NCBI GenBank assembly: GCA_039683615.1
Contig: JBDKRA010000001.1
Span: 25,958 to 89,957, forward strand
DNA length: 64,000 bases
Source of the DNA: Phycisphaerae bacterium
Lineage (GTDB): Bacteria; Planctomycetota; Phycisphaerae; SM23-33
Direction of reading: 5' to 3'
Part shown: positions 10,722 to 26,823 of the stretch, one piece after another
Numbering within the stretch: the stretch's first letter is position 1
Layout of the letters: every line of letters starts with the position of its first letter
Position numbers and translations under genes: made by a program
Notes under the pieces: generated by a model
Told to the model about the DNA's origin: nothing
What the model saw: only the letters and a program-made list of their open reading frames with translations
Database searches by the model: none

Positions 10722-12482
10722 CTACCGCGACACTACGACAGCGGCCGGCTTGTCGAGGGGCACGTTCAAATAGGCCAAGGCCTGTTCGAGCACCTGCTTG
10801 ACGTAGGGCGCGGCCACCTTGCCCCCATAATACCCTTTTGCCGGGTCGGGCCAATAGACTGAAATCAGGCACACGACTCGCGGGCGGTCGGCCGGGGCGC
10901 CGGCGATGTAGCTGGCGACGTACGCCCCCTCGCGGTAGCCAGCTGGTCCGGGGATCTGGGCGGTGCCGGTCTTGCCGAAGCTCGTCCAGCCGTCGAGGGG
11001 ATACTCCTTGGCCGTGCCCGCCTCGACGACGCCGCGCATGGCCGCCACGGTGGCGGCCGCGGTCGCCGGCGAGATCACGCGCCGCACGGCCTTGGGCATG
11101 CCGCGGTGGATCACCGTCCCGTCGGGGCGGCAGATGTAGTCCACCAGTTGCGGCTCCATCAGCACCCCGCCGTTGGACAGGGCGCTAAAGGCCATGGCAA
11201 GCTGCAGCGAGGTGGTCGATATTTCCTGCCCGAACGGCACGCGGCGAAGGCTGTAGCCGTCCCACTTGCGCAGCGGGCGGACGATCCCGCCGCTCTCGCC
11301 AGGCAGGGGAATGCCCGTGCGGTCGGCCAGGCCGAACGCCTTGGCCCACTCGAACAGGCGGCGATTGCCCATCATCTCGCCGACTTTGGCCATCCCGATG
11401 TTGCTGGAGAACTTGATCACATCCGCCAGCGAGAGCATGCCATAGCTCTGCCCGTGGTCGGTGATCGTGCCGCCCTTGGGCGCGCGGTAGTGGCCGTTCT
11501 CGCAGTTGAGCATGGTGTTGTAGTTCAACAATCCCTGCTCAACGGCCGCGGCGGCGAAGATCGGTTTCATGGCGCTGCCGGCCTCGACGGGCATGCTGAT
11601 GCAGCGATTAACCCGGCTGTCGGCGGGGGAATCCTGGTAGGCCGCCGGGTTGAACGTCGGCACCGACGCCATCGCCAGCACCTGCCCGGTCCAGGGGTCG
11701 ACGATCAGGCCGCTGCCCCATTTGCCGCCGTAGGTGCTGACGGCCTGGGCGAGGGCCTCTTCCAGCATCGCCTGCATCGACAGGTCGATGCTGAGGAAGA
11801 CGTTGTACCCGTCGCGGGGCGGGGTGGACTTGGATTCGTCGCTCCAGATCGCCCGCCGCCGCGCGTCGGCCAGCATCACTTTCTCGCCGTCGGTAGGCAG
11901 CAGGCTCTGGCGGAACGACAACTCCGCCCCTGCCCCCGGCTCGCCGTTGGGGCGGCGGTAACCCAGCACCGTCGCGGCCAGCGACCCGTTGGGGTATTCC
12001 CGCTGCCAGTGGTAGTCGATGCCGACAGCCGGCAGCTTGAGGTTGTGCACGTTCTGCGCCTGCTGCTCGTCGAGGGCTTTGACGACGCGAACGTAGCCCG
12101 ACTCGCGGCGCTGCAGCAGCGTTTCCTGAAGGGCCGGGACGAACTTGATGCGATCCTGCGTCGACATGCCCACGGCCTTGCTGATGCCGATGGCCACTTC
12201 GTCCGACTGGCTTTCCTTGAGCATGCGCGGATCGACGTAGACCCCGGGGACCCGGCGACTGATCACCACCGAGGCATAGCGCCGGCGCTCGCGGGCGAAG
12301 ATGCTGCCCGGGCGACCCGGCAGCGGCACGGTCATGGTCTGCTGCACGCGGATGCGCGCCTGGGCGTTCTCATGCCCCGTGCGGACCAGCGACGCCTGCG
12401 CGCAGGCGAAGCCTGCCAGCGCCACCGCGACGACCGCGAAGGCCGCTTCCAGCCGCCATCGCCCCGGCACCGGAGATATCAT
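10722..12482 (-). CDS. ftsI: Peptidoglycan D,D-transpeptidase (class B PBP; FtsI/PBP3-like)
   Basis: 586 aa with an N-terminal TM segment, a dimerisation region and a transpeptidase active site SAMK (SxxK). It occupies the ftsI position between ftsL and murE. Confidence 0.85.
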   Translation of the reverse strand: MISPVPGRWRLEAAFAVVAVALAGFACAQASLVRTGHENAQARIRVQQTMTVPLPGRPGSIFARERRRYASVVISRRVPGVYVDPRMLKESQSDEVAIGISKAVGMSTQDRIKFVPALQETLLQRRESGYVRVVKALDEQQAQNVHNLKLPAVGIDYHWQREYPNGSLAATVLGYRRPNGEPGAGAELSFRQSLLPTDGEKVMLADARRRAIWSDESKSTPPRDGYNVFLSIDLSMQAMLEEALAQAVSTYGGKWGSGLIVDPWTGQVLAMASVPTFNPAAYQDSPADSRVNRCISMPVEAGSAMKPIFAAAAVEQGLLNYNTMLNCENGHYRAPKGGTITDHGQSYGMLSLADVIKFSSNIGMAKVGEMMGNRRLFEWAKAFGLADRTGIPLPGESGGIVRPLRKWDGYSLRRVPFGQEISTTSLQLAMAFSALSNGGVLMEPQLVDYICRPDGTVIHRGMPKAVRRVISPATAAATVAAMRGVVEAGTAKEYPLDGWTSFGKTGTAQIPGPAGYREGAYVASYIAGAPADRPRVVCLISVYWPDPAKGYYGGKVAAPYVKQVLEQALAYLNVPLDKPAAVVVSR

Positions 12483-16952: not shown

Positions 16953-17135
16953 CTACTTCGCGGCCTTGGCTCGCTTGCGGCGGAGGGGATTGATATCGAT
17001 GATCTCGCCATCCTTATAGACGTACAGTGGCGAGCCGGTACGCTTGGCCAGTTCGCGAGCGGCCTTGGCGGCTCTCTTCATCGCAGGCCACGATCCCACG
17101 ATATCTGGATCGCTCGATTGGATTGTCTTCTTCAT
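16953..17135 (-). CDS. Small basic protein (60 aa), translationally coupled downstream of the zeta-toxin-like kinase; candidate partner or antitoxin
   Basis: ATGA overlap with the upstream gene's stop. Sequence MKKTIQSSDPDIVGSWPAMKRAAKAARELAKRTGSPLYVYKDGEIIDINPLRRKRAKAAK. Local GC is lower (about 55%). Confidence 0.5.
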   Translation of the reverse strand: MKKTIQSSDPDIVGSWPAMKRAAKAARELAKRTGSPLYVYKDGEIIDINPLRRKRAKAAK

Positions 17136-17668
17136 GGATTTTCTCCCGAGGCAACCAGTTTCAACTCGGGGCCTGAATTATCATACATCACCCAGCTATT
17201 TACCAGTTCACAGTATATTGTCCGAAGATTCCGCAGGCCCGAGTCAAATCGGCGGCGAATCACCGGTACGGGGACGTGGTGCCCGCCTTGAGCAACACGC
17301 ATCTTCACTCTAGCCACGGCAAAGTCAGCCGAAGGAAGGCTCAGGAAGACCAACTTCACATGGTAGCCCGCTTTCTTCCACCGCTGGATATGCCGCACGT
17401 AGTTTCTGCCGCTGAGGGTTGTCTCGAACGCAAAGCTTTCGCCTCGGCCATATCTGCGGGCAATCTCCTTGAGCATGATCTTTCCAGCCTGGATCGCCAC
17501 GCGCTCAGGCGCAAAGGGCGAGAGACCTCGGGCGATCAGGTCCGCGTTAATGAAGTCCGGACATCCGGCCTCGCGCGGCAGAAACTGCTCGGCAAAGGTC
17601 GTCTTCCCGGCCCCGTTGGGACCGGCGATAATGACGATCTTCTTGCCAGATTGAATTGGCCTGCTCAT
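17132..17668 (-). CDS. Zeta-toxin / COG4185-family P-loop kinase (AAA_33-like)
   Basis: 178 aa with Walker A IIAGPNGAGKTTFAEQF and the overall pattern of zeta-toxin-domain ATPases. Local GC is about 55%, against about 68% in the flanking genes. Confidence 0.8.
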   Translation of the reverse strand: MSRPIQSGKKIVIIAGPNGAGKTTFAEQFLPREAGCPDFINADLIARGLSPFAPERVAIQAGKIMLKEIARRYGRGESFAFETTLSGRNYVRHIQRWKKAGYHVKLVFLSLPSADFAVARVKMRVAQGGHHVPVPVIRRRFDSGLRNLRTIYCELVNSWVMYDNSGPELKLVASGENP

Positions 17669-18940: not shown

Positions 18941-19995
18941 ATCCGGCTATCCTTGGCGGCCGCCACCATCTCGTCGATCGTGGTCGTAGCGGCGGCGCAG
19001 ACACGATCGCCTGCGCCGTAGTAAACCACGATGCGCCCGTCTTCGTCCACCGTCAGTCCGTTGGAAAAGACGCAGTTGGCGTAGATGCCCGACATTTCGT
19101 AGGTCTCGCGGGGCTCCAGGACGGGCCTGGCGCTGTGGCTGATGATCCGCTGAGGCCGTTCGAGTTCGCTGAGCATCGCGCCGAGATAATATCGGCCTTG
19201 TTCGTCGGCGGCATGGAAGATTTCCAGCCATCCCGCCGGCGTCTCGATGGGCGCGGCCCCGCAGCCGACGCGCTGGCCCATCCACGTGCCCGGCCGCGGG
19301 GCCAGCGTCATCTCGTGGCGGCCCCAGCATTCCAGGTCCGGCGACCAGCCCGTCCAGATGCACGGCGGATTGAAGACGCTGCGGTACGGGCGGTGGCGGC
19401 AGACGTACATGTTCTGGATCTTTCGCGGGAAGATGCACACGTCTTTCTGGTACGGCGGGAAGACCACGCCGTGGCGGTAGAACTCGACGAAGTCGCTGGT
19501 CGAGGCCAGCGAGACCGTCACCCCGCGGTCGCTGACGGAGGTGTACGTGATGTAATACTGCCCGTTGGTGAACGTGATGCGCGGGTCTTCGCAGCCGTAC
19601 GCTTCGTACTCGTTGATGGGGAAGATCGCCGGTTTGCGGTCGAAGCTGAAGTGCTCGCCGTCGCGGCTGCGGGCGATCCGCAGGTGCGACAGGCTCGACA
19701 GGAGCATGCGCCCGCGATAGTGATACCCGCGGGCGTCGGGCATCGTCAGGTCCGGGTCGCTGACGGAGATGTGCCGCACGTCGACGGCGTCGGCCGCGGC
19801 GTCATAGACCAGGTAGCTGATGTAATGCGGCTGCGGGATCGGCCGCTCGCCCACGCGAACCAGCAACAGCGTCTCGTCGCCCAGGCGCACTGCCGCGGGG
19901 TTGAGCGTGCAGAGCACCTCCAGGTCGCCCCGCGTCGGGGCAACGTCCTGCGGCGTGAGCAGCGGATTGGCGGCCAGTCGTTGCAGCAATGGCAT
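18937..19995 (-). CDS. GH130-family (DUF377) glycoside hydrolase or phosphorylase-like protein
   Basis: 352 aa with the conserved GCEDPRI motif and a five-bladed beta-propeller-like repeat pattern typical of GH130. It has a 4-nt overlap with the GT4 gene, so the two form an operon. Confidence 0.75.
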   Translation of the reverse strand: MPLLQRLAANPLLTPQDVAPTRGDLEVLCTLNPAAVRLGDETLLLVRVGERPIPQPHYISYLVYDAAADAVDVRHISVSDPDLTMPDARGYHYRGRMLLSSLSHLRIARSRDGEHFSFDRKPAIFPINEYEAYGCEDPRITFTNGQYYITYTSVSDRGVTVSLASTSDFVEFYRHGVVFPPYQKDVCIFPRKIQNMYVCRHRPYRSVFNPPCIWTGWSPDLECWGRHEMTLAPRPGTWMGQRVGCGAAPIETPAGWLEIFHAADEQGRYYLGAMLSELERPQRIISHSARPVLEPRETYEMSGIYANCVFSNGLTVDEDGRIVVYYGAGDRVCAAATTTIDEMVAAAKDSRI

Positions 19996-20020
19996 GTTGC
20001 ACCCCTTTGGGGAAGTTGTG

Positions 20021-20152
20021 AGTTGTGAGTGGTGAGTTCAGGAACTCCTTCCCGGGCGGTTCCCCCTCACAACACACAACTCACAACTCTCTTACTTCCC
20101 CCTCACAACTCACAACACACAACTCACAACTCACAACTCACAACTCACAACT
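20021..20152. repeat. Heptanucleotide microsatellite arranged as an inverted pair: (GAGTTGT)n followed by (TCACAAC)n
   Basis: Read directly from the sequence: GAGTTGT x2 plus variants, then two blocks of ACAACTC/TCACAAC repeats of 2 and 7 copies. It lies immediately upstream of the GH130-GT4 operon start at 19995 and downstream of the DUF72 gene. Confidence 0.8.
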
Positions 20153-20918
20153 CCCGCACAATGCGGGCGAACGCCTGCGCATTCGCGGCCGCCTGACCGG
20201 CGTGGCAGTTGTTGAAGAACGCGTAGACCTTTTCGGCCGGCGGCTCCAGCGACGACCAGCCGCGGGCGATCTCCTCCAGCTCGGCGTCGCTGTAATTGTA
20301 ATCATATCGGGCCGCGTATCCGGCGTGCCACTTGGCCGCGTCGCGCGAGTGAAGGCGGAAGTACCCCGCCCCCGCCGTCGCGGCCGGGGCGTGATGGTAC
20401 AGCTCGGCCAGGTCCGGAACGTCCGGAACCACCAGCAGCACGCCCCGCTCACGCAGCGACTGCGTGGCCGCCTCGTCCTGCCACGAGCAATGCCGAAACT
20501 CCACCGCCAGCGGAACCGACGCCATGTCGTCGCAAACGGCCGCAAGGTACTTGCGATTGGCCACCGTTCGCCGGAACGACTGCGGGAATTGCAGCAGCAC
20601 CCCGGCCAGCTTGCCCGCGGCCGACATCGGCGCCAGGGCCTCGAGGAACGGCCTCGCCGCCTCGCGAAGCTGCTTGTGCGTGGTATCCTGGTTGGCCTTG
20701 ACCCAGAACTCGAACCCCGCCGGGCTCTTGCGGGCCAGGGCGTCCATAGTCGCGGCCGCGGGCATCCGGTAGTACGTGAAGTTCAACTCGACAGCCGAGA
20801 ACTGCCGCGCGTACAAATCAAACATGTCCGCCGCTCGGGCCTGGACGGGATAGAAATTACCGACCCAGTCCCCGAACGAATACCCGCACGTGCCGATGAT
20901 AAACCGCGTCTGGTTCAT
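20145..20918 (-). CDS. DUF72 (UPF0759) family protein
   Basis: 257 aa. N-terminus IIGTCGYSFGDW...FYP and the overall pattern are typical of DUF72 TIM-barrel proteins. Confidence 0.75.
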   Translation of the reverse strand: MNQTRFIIGTCGYSFGDWVGNFYPVQARAADMFDLYARQFSAVELNFTYYRMPAAATMDALARKSPAGFEFWVKANQDTTHKQLREAARPFLEALAPMSAAGKLAGVLLQFPQSFRRTVANRKYLAAVCDDMASVPLAVEFRHCSWQDEAATQSLRERGVLLVVPDVPDLAELYHHAPAATAGAGYFRLHSRDAAKWHAGYAARYDYNYSDAELEEIARGWSSLEPPAEKVYAFFNNCHAGQAAANAQAFARIVREL

Positions 20919-21101
20919 ATCTCGAAGTCATCCAGCATCATCATTTACCAGTCACTGCGCCTGCCCCACGCCCGCCAACAAGTTAATACTACACAGGCAA
21001 ACAGCCATCTCAAAGGTGGCAGGGATCAGTAATCGCTAATCGGTGATGGGCGATAGCTGATAGCCGAAAGCTGAAAGCTGACAGCCGCCACCATAATTGT
21101 C

Positions 21102-21140
21102 ATTCCTTGCACTTTGTTGTACTTTTCACAGCGACTTCGC
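21102..21140. repeat. Left 39-bp terminal inverted repeat of a 3.6-kb low-GC island
   Basis: ATTCCTTGCACTTTGTTGTACTTTTCACAGCGACTTCGC. Its reverse complement recurs at 24700-24739 with 2 mismatches. Confidence 0.75.
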
Positions 21141-21523
21141 GGACACGCGCGTCCAATTGCAGCATGCGCGGACCCACATAGCCCACGTTCCCCTCGTCAA
21201 TTGGAAATTCCCAATTGGAAATTGGAAATGGCTAAGCTGCTGTTTCTCTTCTGCCTTGCGGATTGGCGGCCGCGAAGGCATAATGCCCCGCAGGGATTTT
21301 TCCGACAGCGGGACTGCCCCCATCGTCTTTGAAAGGCCGCAATGCCGACGCTGAACTGGATAGGTAAGGATGCCGTCGCTGACCGCACGGATTCTCGAAG
21401 CCCTCTCGCCCCACGCCGGACCCAAGGTCATCTACGGCGAAGGCTCCCGCCTGGGCCCCGCGCGACTAAAACGCCTCAATATCACGTTCAAACAAGTGCC
21501 CTATGAGATCAAGGTGAGCTGAG

Positions 21524-22570
21524 ATGGGTGAAGGACATTTGACAGCAGATAATTCCGAAAATCGCAATTGCGCGCTTTGCGGAAAGGAAGCCCGATTCAG
21601 CGAGTTCCACTTCGTCAACAGACAGCCCATAAAAATGTTTGATTATGACTGCCCAGGGTGCGGGCGATATCTATTGGATTGGACTGTAGGCGCGCGGCTA
21701 AAGCACGATAAGACTGGTTTGGCTTTTAAGCTTGCATGCCTTGTACGAGAGCGCCGTATTCGCCACGACGAGGGGCTATTTGCCATCCTCAGCAAGGCCC
21801 CAGCACAGGATATATCCAAGCTAGTTGATCGGGCATGGCTGGTAGATGAGTTAGCTGCAGATTTTCCCGGCCCGACGGCCATGATCGATCGCACTCTATT
21901 GAATCTATCCAAACTCACGCAACACCCCATGGGAGTGGTATGCCTGTCAAATTGCGACAGGGCCTACTTAACCTTTTGCGATGAAAGAGCTATCCAGGAT
22001 TCCGTAAGCTACTTAGAAGCAAAGGGACTCATACGCGACGCGGGAAGTTCGACTACTTCTACCGAAATCACAATCACTCCAGACGGGTGGGATCGCATCG
22101 AAAAGATTTCAGAAGTGGCGGCTGAGTCAAAACAGGCATTTGTTGCAATGTGGTTTAATGAGTCGACAAGGTGCTTCTTTGATGTGGGAATTGAACCCGC
22201 AGTACGAGAAACTGGGTTTATCTGCAAAAGAATCGACCGCGTCGAGCACATCAACAAGATTTGCGACGAGATTGTCGCGGAAATTCGAAAGAGCCGCTTC
22301 CTAGTAGCCGATTTTTCAGCCGGGTGCTGTAAAATGTGCGGAGAGTGCCAGCATCAGAAGGACTGCAAAGATCAAGTTCGTCCTCGTGGCGGAGTCTATT
22401 TCGAGGCCGGGTTCGCGATGGGGCTGGGCATTCCAGTAATCTGGACAATCCGCAAGGAGCAGTTGGAGCAGGTTCATTTCGACATTCGTCAATACAACTT
22501 TATCGCCTATGAGAATCCAGAAGACTTGAAAGATCGCCTATTCAACAGAATCAGGGCGACAATTCATTGA
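21524..22570 (+). CDS. Zinc-ribbon / winged-helix / nucleoside 2-deoxyribosyltransferase-like (NDT/DNPH1-type Rossmann) multidomain protein; candidate defence or nucleotide-processing effector
   Basis: 348 aa. N-terminal 4-Cys zinc ribbon (CALCG...CPGCG). Central helix plus KGLI plus beta-wing (ITITPDGWDRIE) that looks like a winged HTH. C-terminal QAFVAMWFNEST...FLVADFS...GGVYFEAGFAMGLGIPVIW matches the NDT/DNPH1 catalytic-Glu motif, with an inserted CCxxCxxC cluster. GC is about 49%, against about 68% in the host. Confidence 0.7.
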   Translation: MGEGHLTADNSENRNCALCGKEARFSEFHFVNRQPIKMFDYDCPGCGRYLLDWTVGARLKHDKTGLAFKLACLVRERRIRHDEGLFAILSKAPAQDISKLVDRAWLVDELAADFPGPTAMIDRTLLNLSKLTQHPMGVVCLSNCDRAYLTFCDERAIQDSVSYLEAKGLIRDAGSSTTSTEITITPDGWDRIEKISEVAAESKQAFVAMWFNESTRCFFDVGIEPAVRETGFICKRIDRVEHINKICDEIVAEIRKSRFLVADFSAGCCKMCGECQHQKDCKDQVRPRGGVYFEAGFAMGLGIPVIWTIRKEQLEQVHFDIRQYNFIAYENPEDLKDRLFNRIRATIH

Positions 22571-22716
22571 TGAATTCGTGCATGGACAACACAGAGGCCC
22601 GAATGGGCCGGCAGACGATAGCCGGGGGTGGAGCGGGCGGCGTTTTTGCGGCCGCGGAGCCCCCGGTCCGTCCCCTCGCGGCGTCAAGCCCTGAAGGGGC
22701 GGCACAAGATTGCCCT

Positions 22717-22870
22717 GTGTCGCGGACATCTTGTCCGCGCGTGCCGCGGGCGTCTCGCTTGCGCATCTGGGAGAAGAAGACGGGGAGCATGGGCGAGACG
22801 CCCATGCCACGGGGGAGGGCAAGATGCCCTCGGCACGCGAGGGCGGGACGCCCGCGACACGATTCGGCCA
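22717..22870. repeat. Cluster of three REP-like hairpins inside the island
   Basis: GTGTCGCGGACATCTTGTCCGCGCGTG (22717-22743); GGGGAGCATGGGCGAGACGCCCATGCCAC (22783-22810); GCGAGGGCGGGACGCCCGCGACACG (22836-22870). Confidence 0.75.
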
Positions 22871-22891
22871 TCGGCGACGGCGACCATTTTG

Positions 22892-23029
22892 TCGATATCA
22901 ACAAAATGGTCCCCAACGACAGGGAAATCAAGATGTGCTCGCCCGCCCGATCATACCATCTTCCCGACATCGGGAAGAAGGTCTGCCTGGGCGACGCGGA
23001 CCATTTCGCGCGTGCGCGCAAAATGGTCC
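22892..23029. promoter_or_regulatory. Two 30-bp palindromes upstream of fic (candidate operators)
   Basis: GACCATTTTGTCGATATCAACAAAATGGTC (22892-22921) and GGACCATTTCGCGCGTGCGCGCAAAATGGTCC (22998-23029). Each is preceded by GGCGACG-N-CGACC. The second ends 32 nt before the fic ATG. Confidence 0.5.
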
Positions 23030-23060
23030 TCCCGGACTGCCGGCAGAAGGAGCGACTCTG

Positions 23061-24143
23061 ATGGTTTTTGATCCGTCCAAACCGTACAACGACCTGCCGC
23101 CACTGCCGCCGGCGGCCGAGATTGACACCAAAGCAATCCTGCGCAAATGCATTTCGGCAAACCGGGCATTGGCGGAACTCAAGGCCGGCGGCAGGCTTAT
23201 CCCTAACCAGACGATCCTCATCAACGCCATTCCTCTGCAGGAAGCCCAGGCCAGCAGCGAGATCGAGAACATCGTCACCACGCAGGATGCCCTTTACCGC
23301 GCCACGCTGCACCCCGAGAAAGCGGACGCGGCCACCAAGGAAGTGCTCAACTACCGTCAGGCGCTCAAGGCGGGTTGGGAATCGCTGCGCACGCGGCCGC
23401 TGAGCACACGAACGTTTGTGGAAGTCTGCCGGGGTCTGCTTGACGTGGATATCGACATCCGCCGCACGCCCGGAGTCACGCTGACCAACAAGGCCACGGG
23501 CAAAGTCATCTACACTCCGCCCGAGACGGAGTCGCTCATCCGCGATCTCTTGGGCAACCTCGAGAAGTTCCTGCATGACGACGCCGCCGGTCTCGACCCG
23601 CTCATCCGCCTGGCGGTGGCCCATTACCAGTTCGAGGCTATTCATCCCTTCGGCGACGGCAACGGGCGCACCGGCCGGATCATCAACATCCTGTACCTGA
23701 TCGAGAAAGGGCTGCTGGAGATTCCGGTGCTTTACCTGAGCGGGCACATCATCCAGAACAAGAACCAGTACTACCGCCTCCTTCGCGCGGTGACCGAGAA
23801 GGGCGCCTGGGAGGACTGGATTCTGTACATGCTCGATGCCGTCGAAGAAACCGCCCGCTGGACGGCAGGAAGGATCGCCGGGATTCGCCAGTTGCTGGAT
23901 GAAACGGCGCGGCTCTGCCGGGAGAAGCTCCCAACCGTATACTCGCGTGAGCTTGTCGAACTTCTTTTCGTGCAGCCATACTGCCGCATCGAGAATCTGG
24001 TGGAAAATGGCATTGCCAAGCGGGTGACGGCGTCAAAATACCTGGCAAGCCTGGAAAAAGAGGGTATTATTTCTGGCATAAAAGTCTGGAAAGAAACCCT
24101 TTATGTCAACAATGGCCTGCTTGAACTCCTCGTAAGGCGATAG
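23061..24143 (+). CDS. fic: Fic-family protein (AMPylase-type; class II with an N-terminal inhibitory motif, plus a C-terminal winged HTH)
   Basis: 360 aa with the catalytic motif HPFGDGNGRTGR and the inhibitory (S/T)xxxE(G/N) motif SSEIEN upstream of it. The start at MVFDPSK (23061) was chosen over the long track ORF starting at 22710, which reads through REP repeats. Confidence 0.85.
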   Translation: MVFDPSKPYNDLPPLPPAAEIDTKAILRKCISANRALAELKAGGRLIPNQTILINAIPLQEAQASSEIENIVTTQDALYRATLHPEKADAATKEVLNYRQALKAGWESLRTRPLSTRTFVEVCRGLLDVDIDIRRTPGVTLTNKATGKVIYTPPETESLIRDLLGNLEKFLHDDAAGLDPLIRLAVAHYQFEAIHPFGDGNGRTGRIINILYLIEKGLLEIPVLYLSGHIIQNKNQYYRLLRAVTEKGAWEDWILYMLDAVEETARWTAGRIAGIRQLLDETARLCREKLPTVYSRELVELLFVQPYCRIENLVENGIAKRVTASKYLASLEKEGIISGIKVWKETLYVNNGLLELLVRR

Positions 24144-24149
24144 GAAGTC

Positions 24150-24470
24150 TCATGTTCATGGCGTGAACATGAGAAGGTTATCATGTTCATTCTATAGTCT
24201 TTTTTAGACATGATGTTTGTGCGATACGATGTGGACGCGCGGCGTACATATCTTCAGGATGTGTACAAATTCTCGCGGTTTTCGTACACATGCCGGAACA
24301 TGTCCCAAACCGGGACATGAGGAAGGACGTGTAAAGAAATCGACGTTTTCTTTACACGTTTTGGGAACGTGTAAAGCGGCTTTACACATCCTTCGTCACG
24401 TTCAAGAAGAAGCGTTTTTTGAACATGAGCACTTGGTCATGTACACGGCATGAACATGACGGTTCTTTTT
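24150..24470. other. AT-rich noncoding region with a dense array of short palindromes and hairpins
   Basis: CATGTTCATGGCGTGAACATG; ACATGTCCCAAACCGGGACATG; ACGTGTAAAGAAATCGACGTTTTCTTTACACGT (13-bp arms); GTGTAAAGCGGCTTTACAC; repeated TGAACATGA and TCATGTACA motifs. It lies between the fic stop and the right island inverted repeat. Confidence 0.6.
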
Positions 24471-24699
24471 CCGGATATCAGGAAAAAGAAGATGGTAAGG
24501 CCGGCGGATGAAGGGTGAGAGCGGCGGCTCGGGCAGACTTGCGTATTTCGTGCGGGTTTTACTGGTTGTAAAGCCAAAACGCATCGGAAATGCACCCAAA
24601 AAGCACCTAAAAGGCACCCAAACCTGGTTTATTCCGATTTAGCCCGGACATGTCACCGCAGTCGATCGTGAACCTTTGATGCCCCGTTGTTGCACTTTT

Positions 24700-24739
24700 G
24701 CGAAGGTGCTGTGAAAAGTACAACAAAGTGCAAGGAAGT
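24700..24739. repeat. Right terminal inverted repeat of the 3.6-kb island
   Basis: GCGAAGGTGCTGTGAAAAGTACAACAAAGTGCAAGGAAGT is the reverse complement of the 21102-21140 repeat (2 mismatches). Confidence 0.75.
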
Positions 24740-24894
24740 GGAAGCGCGGGTAGAGGCGGGGTTGTCCGGCGGGATGGGGGTTGGCGGCTGATTCTTCGCC
24801 GGGAATGCAACATTGGCCCCGCTGGGGCGTTGAGATTATTATAATGATCGTTCCGGCGGCTGGTGGGGCGGCGGGGATTTGGCGAGGTGCATGT

Positions 24895-26823
24895 ATGGGA
24901 CGATGCAGATCGTGGGCGGTTGCGGCTGGGCTGATCGGCCTGCTGGCTTGGTGGGCGGATGGGGCTGCGGCTGCGCCGACGCCCCGGCCGGCGCCTAAGC
25001 CGGGGCCTAAGCCGGCGCCCAGGCCGGGGCCTGGAGCGGCCTCTCGGCCGGCGTCTCGTCCAGCGTCACAGCCGGCGTCGCGGCCGGCGTCTAGACCTGC
25101 CGTCGTAGTGGCGGCGGCTGCCTCTGGGCCGGCTACGGCGGCTGGGATTTCGCCTCTGGCGGCCGAGGCGCAGAAGCTTGACGATGCGGCACGCGTCGAG
25201 CGGGCCAAGAAGGCCTCCGGCGAGTTTGAACGCATCTTCGGCAAGCACGTCCGCGCCGTCCTGGCCACGCCGGCGGTGCAGGACGATCTGGCCTTGGCGG
25301 AAAAGCTCATGGCGATGCAGCCGCAGGCGGCCGACGACGTGTTCTTCGCCGCGGCGATGTGCGAGAAGGCGTACGATCTGTCGGCGCCCAGCGCGGCGGG
25401 GCAGACGACGGCCGCGGCGGCGCTGGAGCAGCTGCTCGCGCTGGCGCCGTGGAAGAGCCGGGCCTGGCTCGAGTCGCTCGTCGAGATTCGGCGCAAGAGC
25501 TTCGCGGCCGCCCGCGGCGAGGACCGCACCGCCGAGGGCGACGCCCTCATCGCCGCCACGCTGCGTCTCGCCGAGGCGCTGGCCGACGACGACGCCTTCA
25601 ACGAGGCCTACGAAGTCTGCCACCGCCTGCTGCCCCTGGCCAAGGCGGTCAAGTCGAAGAAGGCCGACGACATCGAGGCCGCCCAGGACCGCTACGCCGC
25701 CCTCAAGCCCATCGGACAGGCGATGGCCGTGCTGCAGATCCGCATCAAGGCCAACCCGGCCGACCAACTCGCCCGCAACGAGCTGATGCGCCTCTACGTC
25801 GCCGAGCGCAACGCCCCGCGCAAGGCCGCCGCCTACCTGACTGCCAAGGCTCCGGCCGACTACCAAGCGAACATCCCCGACGCCCAGCGCAGTCTGGCGG
25901 CGCTGGACGCCGCAGACTGCCTGCGCCTGGGCCTCTGGTACGAAGACCTCATCGACCGCGCCAGCGAGCAGGGCAAAGCCCTCGCCGCCCGACGCTCCCG
26001 AGACTACCTCCAGCAGTACCTCGACCTGCACGAGACCGCCGACGCCACGCGAGCCAAGGCCGCGGCCGCCATCAAGAAACTCGACGCTCTGCTGGCGAGC
26101 CTGGCAGGAAAGAAGACCCACCAGGCCATGAAGTTCGTGCGCACGCTCGATGTCTCTGCCGGGCGGCTGGTCTCCAACCTGCCGATGCACTTCCGCAACC
26201 CCTACGCCCAGCGCACCATCGACCTGTGGATGCTGGCCGGCAAGGACGACGGCATCATCGTCGACCAGGGCGCCTCGCGGGCGGGGATGGTCGTGGGTCT
26301 GTTCAAAAACCGCATCTGCTTCGCCTTCAACGACGCCAAGGAGCACACCCACATCGTCCAGGACGACAAGGGCAACAACCGCACCGAGCCGATCCCCGCC
26401 GCGGTGATCTCGGCGCCGCTGCCGGATCGCGACAAGTGGTGCCACGTCGCCGTCCAGTACGCCAACGGGTACCTGTCGCTCTGGATCAACGGCAAGCTCT
26501 CGGCCGAACGGCAGGTGGGAACCCCCGCCATCCCCGGCGACACCGAGGGCGTGTGCATCGGCGGCGGGTTCGGCTCCAATGCCGGGTACTGGGACGCCAA
26601 GGGATTCGGCGGCAAAGTGGCGGCCGTCCGCTTCTCCAGCCGCGCGCGCTACTCCAAGAACTTCGAGCCCGAGGAGCAGATGGGCACCACCGGCGCGTTC
26701 GCCTTCGTCTGCGCCGACCGACTCTCGACGGGCGAACTCGATCGCTCCACGCGCGACAGCGTCTCGGCCAGCTACATCGTCTGGTCGAGCATCGGCCAGG
26801 TGCGCGTCGTGAACGTCGATTAG
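24895..26823 (+). CDS. Secreted protein with signal peptide, Pro/Ala/Ser-repeat linker, helical region and C-terminal LamG / concanavalin-A-like jelly-roll domain
   Basis: Start chosen at MGRCRSWAVAAGLIGLLAWWADGAAAA (signal peptide). The linker reads PRPAPKPGPKPAPRPGP...SRPASRPASQPASRPASRPA. The C-terminal GIIVDQGASRAGMVVGLFKNRICFAFND...WCHVAVQYANGYLSLWINGK is typical of a LamG fold. Confidence 0.7.
   Translation: MGRCRSWAVAAGLIGLLAWWADGAAAAPTPRPAPKPGPKPAPRPGPGAASRPASRPASQPASRPASRPAVVVAAAASGPATAAGISPLAAEAQKLDDAARVERAKKASGEFERIFGKHVRAVLATPAVQDDLALAEKLMAMQPQAADDVFFAAAMCEKAYDLSAPSAAGQTTAAAALEQLLALAPWKSRAWLESLVEIRRKSFAAARGEDRTAEGDALIAATLRLAEALADDDAFNEAYEVCHRLLPLAKAVKSKKADDIEAAQDRYAALKPIGQAMAVLQIRIKANPADQLARNELMRLYVAERNAPRKAAAYLTAKAPADYQANIPDAQRSLAALDAADCLRLGLWYEDLIDRASEQGKALAARRSRDYLQQYLDLHETADATRAKAAAAIKKLDALLASLAGKKTHQAMKFVRTLDVSAGRLVSNLPMHFRNPYAQRTIDLWMLAGKDDGIIVDQGASRAGMVVGLFKNRICFAFNDAKEHTHIVQDDKGNNRTEPIPAAVISAPLPDRDKWCHVAVQYANGYLSLWINGKLSAERQVGTPAIPGDTEGVCIGGGFGSNAGYWDAKGFGGKVAAVRFSSRARYSKNFEPEEQMGTTGAFAFVCADRLSTGELDRSTRDSVSASYIVWSSIGQVRVVNVD

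Follow-up and report, generated by a model that had tools for sequence, protein, structure and literature searches.

A mobile zinc ribbon, winged helix and NDT-like protein carried in restriction-modification operons, a candidate single-protein immune system

We analyzed a 64,000-nucleotide stretch of a Phycisphaerae contig (JBDKRA010000001.1; hereafter the window) and within it a 348-residue protein, the target, in which a zinc ribbon, a helical linker and a winged helix precede a domain of the nucleoside 2'-deoxyribosyltransferase (NDT) superfamily. Homologues of the target are often embedded in restriction-modification (R-M) operons, are horizontally mobile and keep an invariant glutamate in the NDT-like domain, and in the window the gene stands intact behind the scar of a Type III methyltransferase gene. 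We propose, with moderate confidence, that the target is an autonomous sensor-effector immune protein whose effector would cleave a nucleotide, e.g. NAD+, at an N-glycosidic bond.

The protein and its NDT-like domain

The gene and its parts are listed below by their positions in the window.

21524-22570, forward strand: target gene, an open reading frame (ORF) with an ATG start, 348 amino acids; zinc ribbon, helical linker, winged helix and NDT-like domain in the AlphaFold2 model
21557-21679, forward strand: zinc ribbon, residues ~12-52, CxxC...CxxCG with Cys16, Cys19, Cys43 and Cys46; a beta-ribbon in the model
21839-22123, forward strand: MarR-like winged helix, residues ~106-200
22124-22567, forward strand: NDT-superfamily (flavodoxin-like) N-glycosidase-type domain, residues ~201-348
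22319-22384, forward strand: Cys-rich insert, residues ~266-287, with Cys268, Cys269, Cys272, Cys275 and Cys281, in the hypervariable loop between strand beta4 and the catalytic loop
22403-22405, forward strand: codon of Glu294, the predicted catalytic nucleophile from its invariance and its alignment to the Glu of Rcl/DNPH1 and of the T. brucei NDT

A hypothetical protein of a Planctomycetaceae metagenome-assembled genome (LLG01_01500 in NCBI) has the same sequence as the target. Its structure was modelled with AlphaFold2 from an input alignment with 32 homologues, and the mean predicted local distance difference test score (pLDDT) of the model was 87.5. In the homologue alignment the four cysteines of the zinc ribbon are invariant or nearly so; across the family the ribbon is optional, two CxxC pairs being present in 61 out of 111 N-termini. 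The first helix of the winged helix (FP...IDRxLLNL...HP) and its wing (GWxRI) are conserved and the putative recognition helix is variable.

The C-terminal domain of the model has five parallel strands in a flavodoxin-like three-layer alpha/beta arrangement, the fold of the NDT superfamily. The best structural matches were the (hydroxymethyl)CMP hydrolases MilB and BcmB (Foldseek template modelling score 0.72 for BcmB) and DNPH1/Rcl (0.66 for DNPH1), and TIR domains were interleaved among the fold matches (MAL, 12.7; SARM1, 12.1). At the sequence level all 39 C-domain relatives tested matched PF05014 (Nuc_deoxyrib_tr) at E <= 0.1, the best at 5.1e-8, whereas the window protein scored 13.6 bits over its full length and 15.9 bits with the C-domain, under the gathering threshold of 28.8 bits. 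Since the window protein misses the canonical cut-off and all 39 relatives match, it is a non-canonical member of the superfamily, in a divergent subfamily. A phmmer search of the PDB with the single target sequence gave one spurious match only, to aureolysin. The family profile matched Rcl/DNPH1 (E 0.01) and the T. brucei NDT in the PDB, and in these alignments GVYFEAG falls onto GVGYELG of Rcl and GTAFEVG of the T. brucei enzyme, with E294 on the catalytic Glu. This residue lies in a G-x-x-(F/Y)-E-x-G motif and is invariant in 32 out of 32 and in 39 out of 39 aligned sequences. The other invariant residues of the C-domain are FVAM 206-209, D248, R288, G290-V-Y292, A295, G296, G300 and H318-F-D320, among which D248 and H318-F-D320 are specific to the target family. 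The TIR models of Pfam (TIR, TIR_2 and CAP12-PCTIR) gave weak matches in only 1-3 of the 39 members, and the family does not belong to these profiles. Judged by these comparisons the C-domain is a divergent subfamily of the NDT superfamily and neither a canonical NDT, nor DNPH1, nor a TIR domain.

The Cys-rich insert follows the pattern CC-x2-C-x2-C-x5-C between strand beta4 (VADFS) and the catalytic loop. It is found in 13 of the 32 close relatives and in 15 of 109 wider ones, all of them within the subclade of the target itself; elsewhere the same site is not filled at all (ADFTGQRGGVY) or holds a short QGxxGA stretch or a Cys-free filling of 14 residues. Model confidence in the insert is low (pLDDT 61-67). 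A match to the metal-binding family DUF2284 is weak (E 1e-3) and confined to insert-bearing members. Because four cysteines of the insert are kept within the subclade it is nevertheless probably a metal site, putatively for Zn or Fe-S. We rejected the cluster as a hallmark of the family, since it fills a hypervariable loop in one clade only.

The initial annotation, made from the sequence alone, had described a zinc ribbon, a winged helix, an NDT/DNPH1-like domain with a catalytic Glu, a Cys-rich insert and a G+C content of about 49%. The alignment, the AlphaFold2 model, Foldseek, the profile alignment and the measured G+C content (0.496) agree with all of these, with the proviso that the Cys-rich cluster, present in the target, is not a feature of the family. 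The outcome that would have refuted the annotation, an unrelated fold without the catalytic Glu, did not occur: Pfam, Foldseek and the profile alignment place it in the NDT-type fold with E294 on the nucleophile.

Restriction-modification operons and the loss of mod

The strongest clue, overlooked in the initial annotation, is the remnant of a mod gene directly upstream of the target gene (loci of homologues are numbered L).

21339-21516, forward strand: scar of a Type III mod gene (N6/N4 DNA methyltransferase), 178 nt, found by tblastn of the L008 Mod protein against the window

The scar joins codons 2-16 to codons 484-529 of the orthologue at L008, about 470 codons being gone, and ends 8 nt upstream of the ATG of the target gene. 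The C-terminal piece is 63% identical to its L008 counterpart (E 5e-14 in tblastn against the whole window) and the N-terminal piece is identical at 13 of 14 positions. No remnant of res was found in the window, which consequently holds no functional Mod and Res pair of a Type III system.

We surveyed the context of the family in a sample of 80 genome loci and a second sample of 40 viral-contig loci, and R-M genes were counted by phmmer with verified R-M proteins. Clustering of the neighbours at the 80 genome loci revealed no universally conserved partner gene. Two sets of neighbours recur: N6/N4 methyltransferases (Type III Mod-like) that directly adjoin the homologue, and full Type I hsdM-hsdS-hsdR operons with the homologue between the subunit genes. 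R-M components flank the homologue at 17 of the 80 genome loci, within 1.5 kb at 15 of these 17, and at 13 of the 40 viral-contig loci. Every flanking R-M gene lies on the same strand as the homologue, and we calculated the chance of such co-orientation at all 17 genome loci to be about 1 in 10^5. The flanking genes were confirmed as HsdM, HsdS, HsdR, Type III Mod and Type III Res. At L008 the order is Type III mod (PADLOC MTase_III, 3e-180), target homologue, two small genes and res (5.5e-151); at L045 it is target homologue, mod and res, and at L127 hsdM, target homologue, hsdS and hsdR. Intact mod and res surround the homologue at L008, L045 and L130. Genes for a TIR_2 protein, a SEFIR protein, UvrD/GajB-like helicases, four-helix proteins of the 23S rRNA intervening sequence type (23S-rRNA-IVS), integrases and a transposase are also among the neighbours.

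Several of these neighbourhoods are worth recording in their own right. At L032 (11009-13425) the homologue is followed by a fusion of an N6_N4 methylase to an Mrr-type nuclease and then by a 307-residue TIR_2 protein, an arrangement that resembles a compact multi-system defence cluster. Genes of the 23S-rRNA-IVS type (four-helix bundle, PF05635) lie directly downstream of the homologue at L010 (11601-12185) and L015 (11125-11715), both Type III-linked, and are another recurrent R-M cargo gene. At L107-L112 (e.g. L107 8935-10371), downstream of hsdR, the homologue is overlapped at its 3' end by a gene for a 479-residue trypsin-like peptidase. An N-terminal trypsin-like protease domain is part of some type II-A2 retron NDT effectors (PMC7736814), and by analogy a functional link between protease and NDT-like domain may recur.

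Comparison of the window with the loci of the closest relatives gave the following series.

L008: Mod intact; Res intact; target homologue intact
L015: Mod intact, with a second copy of the Mod 3' end past the cargo block; target homologue intact
L009: in-frame deletion of Mod residues 63-478; target homologue intact
L010: Mod cut after residue 108; Res residues 179-568 deleted; target homologue intact
Window: Mod residues 17-483 deleted; Res absent; target intact

The breakpoints in the window, L009 and L010 differ, therefore the methylase was lost three times independently and the target gene was kept each time. We infer that the host is spared without methylation by Mod and that the gene is maintained on its own account. 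The first point speaks against a restriction-like activity of the classical kind, and a methylation-protected restriction enzyme is thus disfavoured. The series formed by the window, L009, L010 and L008 amounts to a natural experiment in which cargo genes outlive the restriction operons that carried them, and it bears on how defence islands are assembled. At L015 (7503-11877) an intact Type III mod, a 251-residue ORF, the target homologue and the 23S-rRNA-IVS gene are followed by a second copy of the last 43 mod codons (11749-11877), which suggests that recombination at the 3' end of mod inserts or exchanges blocks of cargo.

The family is large and horizontally mobile. An exhaustive search with the family profile over 1.84 billion cluster representatives (50%-identity clusters) led to 18,706 matches at E <= 1e-3, 10,555 at E <= 1e-10 and 4,229 at E <= 1e-30, and the top 150 all have the same full-length architecture of ~300-350 residues. 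A scan of one genome per species confirmed at least 578 loci; the loci listed include Planctomycetota, Nitrosomonas, Sphingomonadales, Dehalococcoidia, Bacteroidota, Verrucomicrobiota, Acidobacteriota and others. Homologues are carried by Bacillus mycoides megaplasmids, by a Leptospira interrogans phage-plasmid and by 40 IMG/VR contigs, and the family matches PHROG 16139 (function unknown) at 4e-44. The G+C content of the homologue is more than 3 points under that of its flanks at 62 of 67 loci, with a mean difference of -10 points. The target gene itself has a G+C content at third codon positions (GC3) of 0.53; the flanking host genes have a GC3 of 0.86-0.90 and the window an overall G+C content of 0.647. 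A conserved cassette of a SEFIR protein, a target homologue and a large class I S-adenosylmethionine-dependent methyltransferase was observed on Leptospira interrogans plasmid p4 (L129, 18161-22973) and at the viral loci L114 and L119-L122. The family had no match among 50,697 deposited phage genomes and its IMG/VR matches lie in R-M contexts, by which a phage anti-defence gene is disfavoured.

Carriage on plasmids, prophage-like contigs and R-M operons, foreign G+C content and frequent occurrence alone would also suit a selfish addiction or toxin module that stabilises these elements and has no primary anti-phage role. We consider this improbable: neighbour clustering revealed no conserved adjoining antitoxin-like partner, and a gene that outlasts the decay of its R-M operon is not stabilising the R-M genes.

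The contexts bear equally on an ordinary function, either in nucleoside salvage as a 2'-deoxyribosyltransferase or as a nucleotide-sensing transcription factor such as an R-M controller. PGAP and JGI name relatives, including the plasmid-borne ones, 'nucleoside 2-deoxyribosyltransferase', and a winged helix-turn-helix could regulate transcription. However no nucleotide-salvage operon was present among the loci surveyed, so that the uniform embedding in salvage operons that would have refuted the initial annotation is not the case, and most loci have no R-M system to regulate. Canonical NDTs are ~140-170 residues long and lack a sensor module, the window protein scores under the Pfam cut-off as described above, and both the invariant catalytic Glu and the strongly foreign composition speak against an ordinary function too. 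An ordinary function is for these reasons highly improbable, and the pipeline name is probably misleading.

Exchange of effectors and the proposed mode of action

The N-terminal half of the protein (zinc ribbon, linker and winged helix; the N-module) evolves faster than the C-domain. Pairwise identity averages 23-31% over the N-terminal regions and 62% over the C-domain, yet BLAST still links 112 out of 114 N-termini. A profile search for relatives of the N-module led mostly to proteins of the same architecture, with two exceptions in which the effector has been swapped. In the first, P0121, the N-module (hhalign 99.9%, E 6e-34) is fused to a CAP12/PCTIR TIR domain (Pfam 6.6e-27, over the cut-off), and the gene has an N6_N4 methylase on one side and a ResIII helicase on the other, the slot that the target homologue occupies at L008. 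In the second, P0123, a linker and a hydrophobic helix at the C-terminus come after the N-module (hhalign 99.9%), and the gene lies 3' of an overlapping gene of DUF4145, a HEPN family (PMC3710099). A constant but fast-evolving N-module joined to interchangeable NDT-like, TIR-like or membrane C-termini is the pattern expected of immune proteins that couple a sensor to a toxic effector, a pattern whose general form was set out by Anantharaman et al. 2013 (PMC3710099). Together with the R-M operon, plasmid and prophage-like contexts, the swapping of effectors in relatives strengthens the early suggestion of a defence-type nucleotide-cleaving effector. The interchange also provides a testable handle on what the sensor recognises.

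We therefore favour, at the strength given above, a self-contained, horizontally mobile immune protein of the abortive-infection type. The zinc ribbon and winged helix would sense an infection cue, either a nucleic acid or a phage protein, or would keep the enzyme inactive. Activation would probably consist of induced oligomerisation that completes an inter-subunit active site, whereupon Glu294 of the NDT-like domain would hydrolyse the N-glycosidic bond of an abundant nucleotide and the infected cell or the phage would be starved. The likeliest substrates would be NAD+, adenine nucleotides or deoxy-nucleotides, as the retron-Ec86 effector and the TIR NADases suggest by analogy. The exchange with a PCTIR TIR domain in P0121 points to cleavage of an NAD+-type nucleotide as well, but the choice of NAD+ itself is tentative and we would call it possible rather than probable. 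Typically the family is carried as cargo in Type I and Type III R-M operons, where it would form a second line of defence, but it does not depend on them; in the window the Type III system of the host has decayed to the mod scar and the target is left intact.

Several observations weigh against this proposal. No PADLOC model matches the target beyond a weak TIR match (7e-5), about 80% of the genome loci have no recognised defence neighbour in their flanks, and many homologues stand alone among housekeeping genes. Embedding in R-M operons is also compatible with selfish addiction. Effector-swapped variants are rare (2 of 31 N-module matches), and the N-module could equally be a DNA-targeting device instead of a sensor. 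In the NDT-like domain itself the beta1 loop of the family, FVAMWF(D/N), replaces the GSIRGG phosphate loop of DNPH1, and the invariant R288 aligns with the phosphate-binding Ser of Rcl (PSLGVGYE). This Ser is Ser87 in rat Rcl.

The last two features bear in opposite directions on a sanitiser of the nucleotide pool, that is a DNPH1/MilB-like hydrolase that would destroy phage-specific modified nucleotides (e.g. hydroxymethyl-dCMP or hydroxymethyl-dUMP) and thereby complement R-M, which hypermodified phages evade. An invariant R288 at the phosphate-binding position suggests a phosphorylated substrate, MilB, BcmB and DNPH1/Rcl are the best structural matches, and Rcl/DNPH1 are the sole PDB matches at the sequence level (E 0.01). 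The replacement of the phosphate loop by AMWF(D/N) speaks against such an enzyme, a constitutive sanitiser needs no large, fast-evolving sensor-like module, and swapping with a membrane helix or a TIR domain better fits a toxic effector than a substrate-specific sanitiser. On balance we give a pool sanitiser little credence.

If the N-module targets DNA, the protein might instead be a DNA-directed glycosylase: the zinc ribbon and winged helix would bind DNA and the NDT-like domain would excise bases from invading DNA, either unmodified (a restriction glycosylase) or hypermodified (Type IV-like), the abasic sites being lethal to the phage. The N-terminal domains are of DNA-binding types, the target is tightly linked to DNA methyltransferases and R-M operons, and, as no more than a lead, the compact CxxCxxCx5C loop by the active site resembles the Fe-S loops known from DNA glycosylases. 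Anantharaman et al. 2013 moreover predicted a DNA-directed activity for NDT domains in fusions with Abi N-terminal domains (PMC3710099). Against this, recurrent loss of mod beside an intact target is at odds with methylation-protected restriction, the putative recognition helix is unconserved, the Cys loop is missing from most members, and the alternative partners of the N-module, a PCTIR TIR domain and a membrane helix, do not target DNA. We also know of no NDT-fold enzyme that acts on polymeric DNA. A DNA glycosylase is accordingly unlikely.

The boldest version of the immune proposal would make the target the founding member of a very large and as yet unnamed class of single-protein immune systems, with more than 4,000 strong 50%-identity clusters, that colonise mod/res and hsdS/hsdR junctions. 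Its NDT-fold effector would have an activity new for the fold, for instance base excision, once restriction has failed, from the DNA of the phage or from hypermodified nucleotides, and in the Planctomycete clade the Fe-S or Zn loop could gate this activity. We regard this version as rather unlikely.

Other features of the window and comparison with known systems

The segment around the target gene contains three further features.

23061-24143, forward strand: SoFic-type Fic gene, 360 amino acids from an internal Met, identified with PADLOC, NCBIfam and Pfam
21103-21140: left arm of a 38-nt inverted repeat, 95% complementary to the right arm
24700-24737: right arm of the 38-nt inverted repeat

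The Fic gene matches SoFic in PADLOC (4.9e-121), NF046030 in NCBIfam (528 bits, cut-off 550) and Fic_N, Fic and SoFic-like_C in Pfam. The initial annotation had suggested that the target might be partnered with this Fic protein. Our census does not support the suggestion: a Fic motif was found in the flanks of just 4 distinct loci of ~125, the closest relatives of the target have other neighbours in the Fic position (Bro-N and 23S-rRNA-IVS proteins), and the GC3 of the SoFic gene is 0.76 against 0.53 for the target gene. We therefore rejected a two-gene SoFic system; the SoFic gene is a co-resident of the island and not a conserved partner.

The 38-nt inverted repeat brackets a 3.6-kb low-GC segment that includes the mod scar, the target gene and the SoFic gene. 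It has two copies in the window where none is expected by chance, and no exact copy was found in metagenomic contigs. There is no transposase inside the bracketed segment, and the repeat could delimit a non-autonomous mobile cassette or be a shared regulatory element. Scans for sigma-70 promoters and terminators near the target gene gave results not better than those of shuffled sequence.

Elsewhere in the window we observed an AT-rich non-coding stretch downstream of the SoFic gene (24150-24700; G+C 0.44-0.50) with no Rfam match and no convincing ORF, which holds 40-nt inverted arms (24150-24189 and 24420-24459), palindromes (24327-24359 and 24463-24490) and a 22-nt tandem pair (24574-24617). 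About 4 kb from the island, at 16953-17668 on the reverse strand, lies a gene for a zeta-toxin/AAA_33-like P-loop kinase (178 residues; Pfam Zeta_toxin 2e-9), preceded by a 60-residue gene whose stop overlaps the kinase start (ATGA), so that the two resemble a toxin-antitoxin pair. In the 3' flank of the DUF72 gene (~20025-20200) a repeated peptide (TTHNSQL...) in the translations points to a short tandem repeat in the DNA of the intergenic region (19995-20145).

In the literature we found no description of the architecture of the target, of the size of its family or of its embedding in Type I and Type III operons. The identity of the domain (in database names), NDT-like retron effectors and the anticipation by Anantharaman et al. 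of NDT domains as toxins of conflict systems are already known. Should the target be a defence system, it would add to the anti-phage repertoire a widespread single-gene module with thousands of clusters in many phyla, on plasmids and in prophages.

Among known enzymes DNPH1/Rcl, MilB/BcmB and the nucleoside 2'-deoxyribosyltransferases (PF05014) are the closest in fold, with the catalytic Glu motif aligned, but they are stand-alone metabolic or biosynthetic enzymes of 120-170 residues to which the target adds a 200-residue N-module. The target also differs from these enzymes in its beta1 phosphate/sugar loop (AMWF), in the extra invariant R288 and H318-F-D320 and in its mobile and defence contexts.

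PrrC-type genes are abortive-infection genes embedded in R-M operons. Like them, homologues of the target are single genes between Type I R-M subunit genes, and the family is found in Type III operons too; the effector of the target is however a glycosidase-type domain and not an RNase. Since the target survives the decay of R-M genes, its regulation by the R-M complex is not implied, in contrast to PrrC-type genes. With the fusions of Abi N-terminal domains to toxins of Anantharaman et al. 2013 the target family also has in common that the N-terminal domain varies and that the putatively toxic C-terminal domain can be exchanged. That paper already listed AbiJ-NTD1 fusions of NDT domains among the predicted toxins (PMC3710099). 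As far as tested, the N-module of the target does not belong to the described AbiJ N-terminal domains.

TIR NADase effectors (CAP12/PCTIR and other Pycsar/CBASS effectors, SARM1, ThsB and the DUF4062 'Swarozyc') are related through P0121, where the N-module bears a PCTIR TIR domain in place of the NDT-like one. Swarozyc, in which a TIR-like NADase is combined with a helix-turn-helix or winged auxiliary domain that senses the phage portal (10.64898/2026.05.01.722283), resembles the target in pairing its effector with such a domain. In contrast to the TIR NADases, the motifs of the target are of the NDT type (VADFT...GGVYFEAG...PVI).

The closest parallel in composition is provided by the effectors of Type II retrons (Retron-Eco1/Ec86, Sen2 and Eco3), which like the target unite an NDT-superfamily effector and a nucleic-acid-binding-type domain in one protein of ~300 residues in a defence setting. 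The effector of retron-Ec86, an NDT-like domain with a DNA-binding domain, dimerises via its NDT-like domains, as is required, and depletes NAD+ or adenine nucleotides (10.1101/2023.08.16.553469; PMC13276650; PMC7736814). No Rfam match, to an msr/msd RNA or otherwise, rose over noise in the window at 20000-25500, no reverse transcriptase-like ORF lies within ~10 kb on either side of the target gene or among the recurrent neighbours of its homologues, and the PADLOC retron models do not match the target. Membership in the retrons was therefore rejected, there being neither a reverse transcriptase nor a non-coding RNA. The domain order of the Type II retron effectors is reversed in the target and the genomic partners of its family are R-M operons instead of retrons, so that a defence role for the target would extend NDT-fold effectors beyond retrons.

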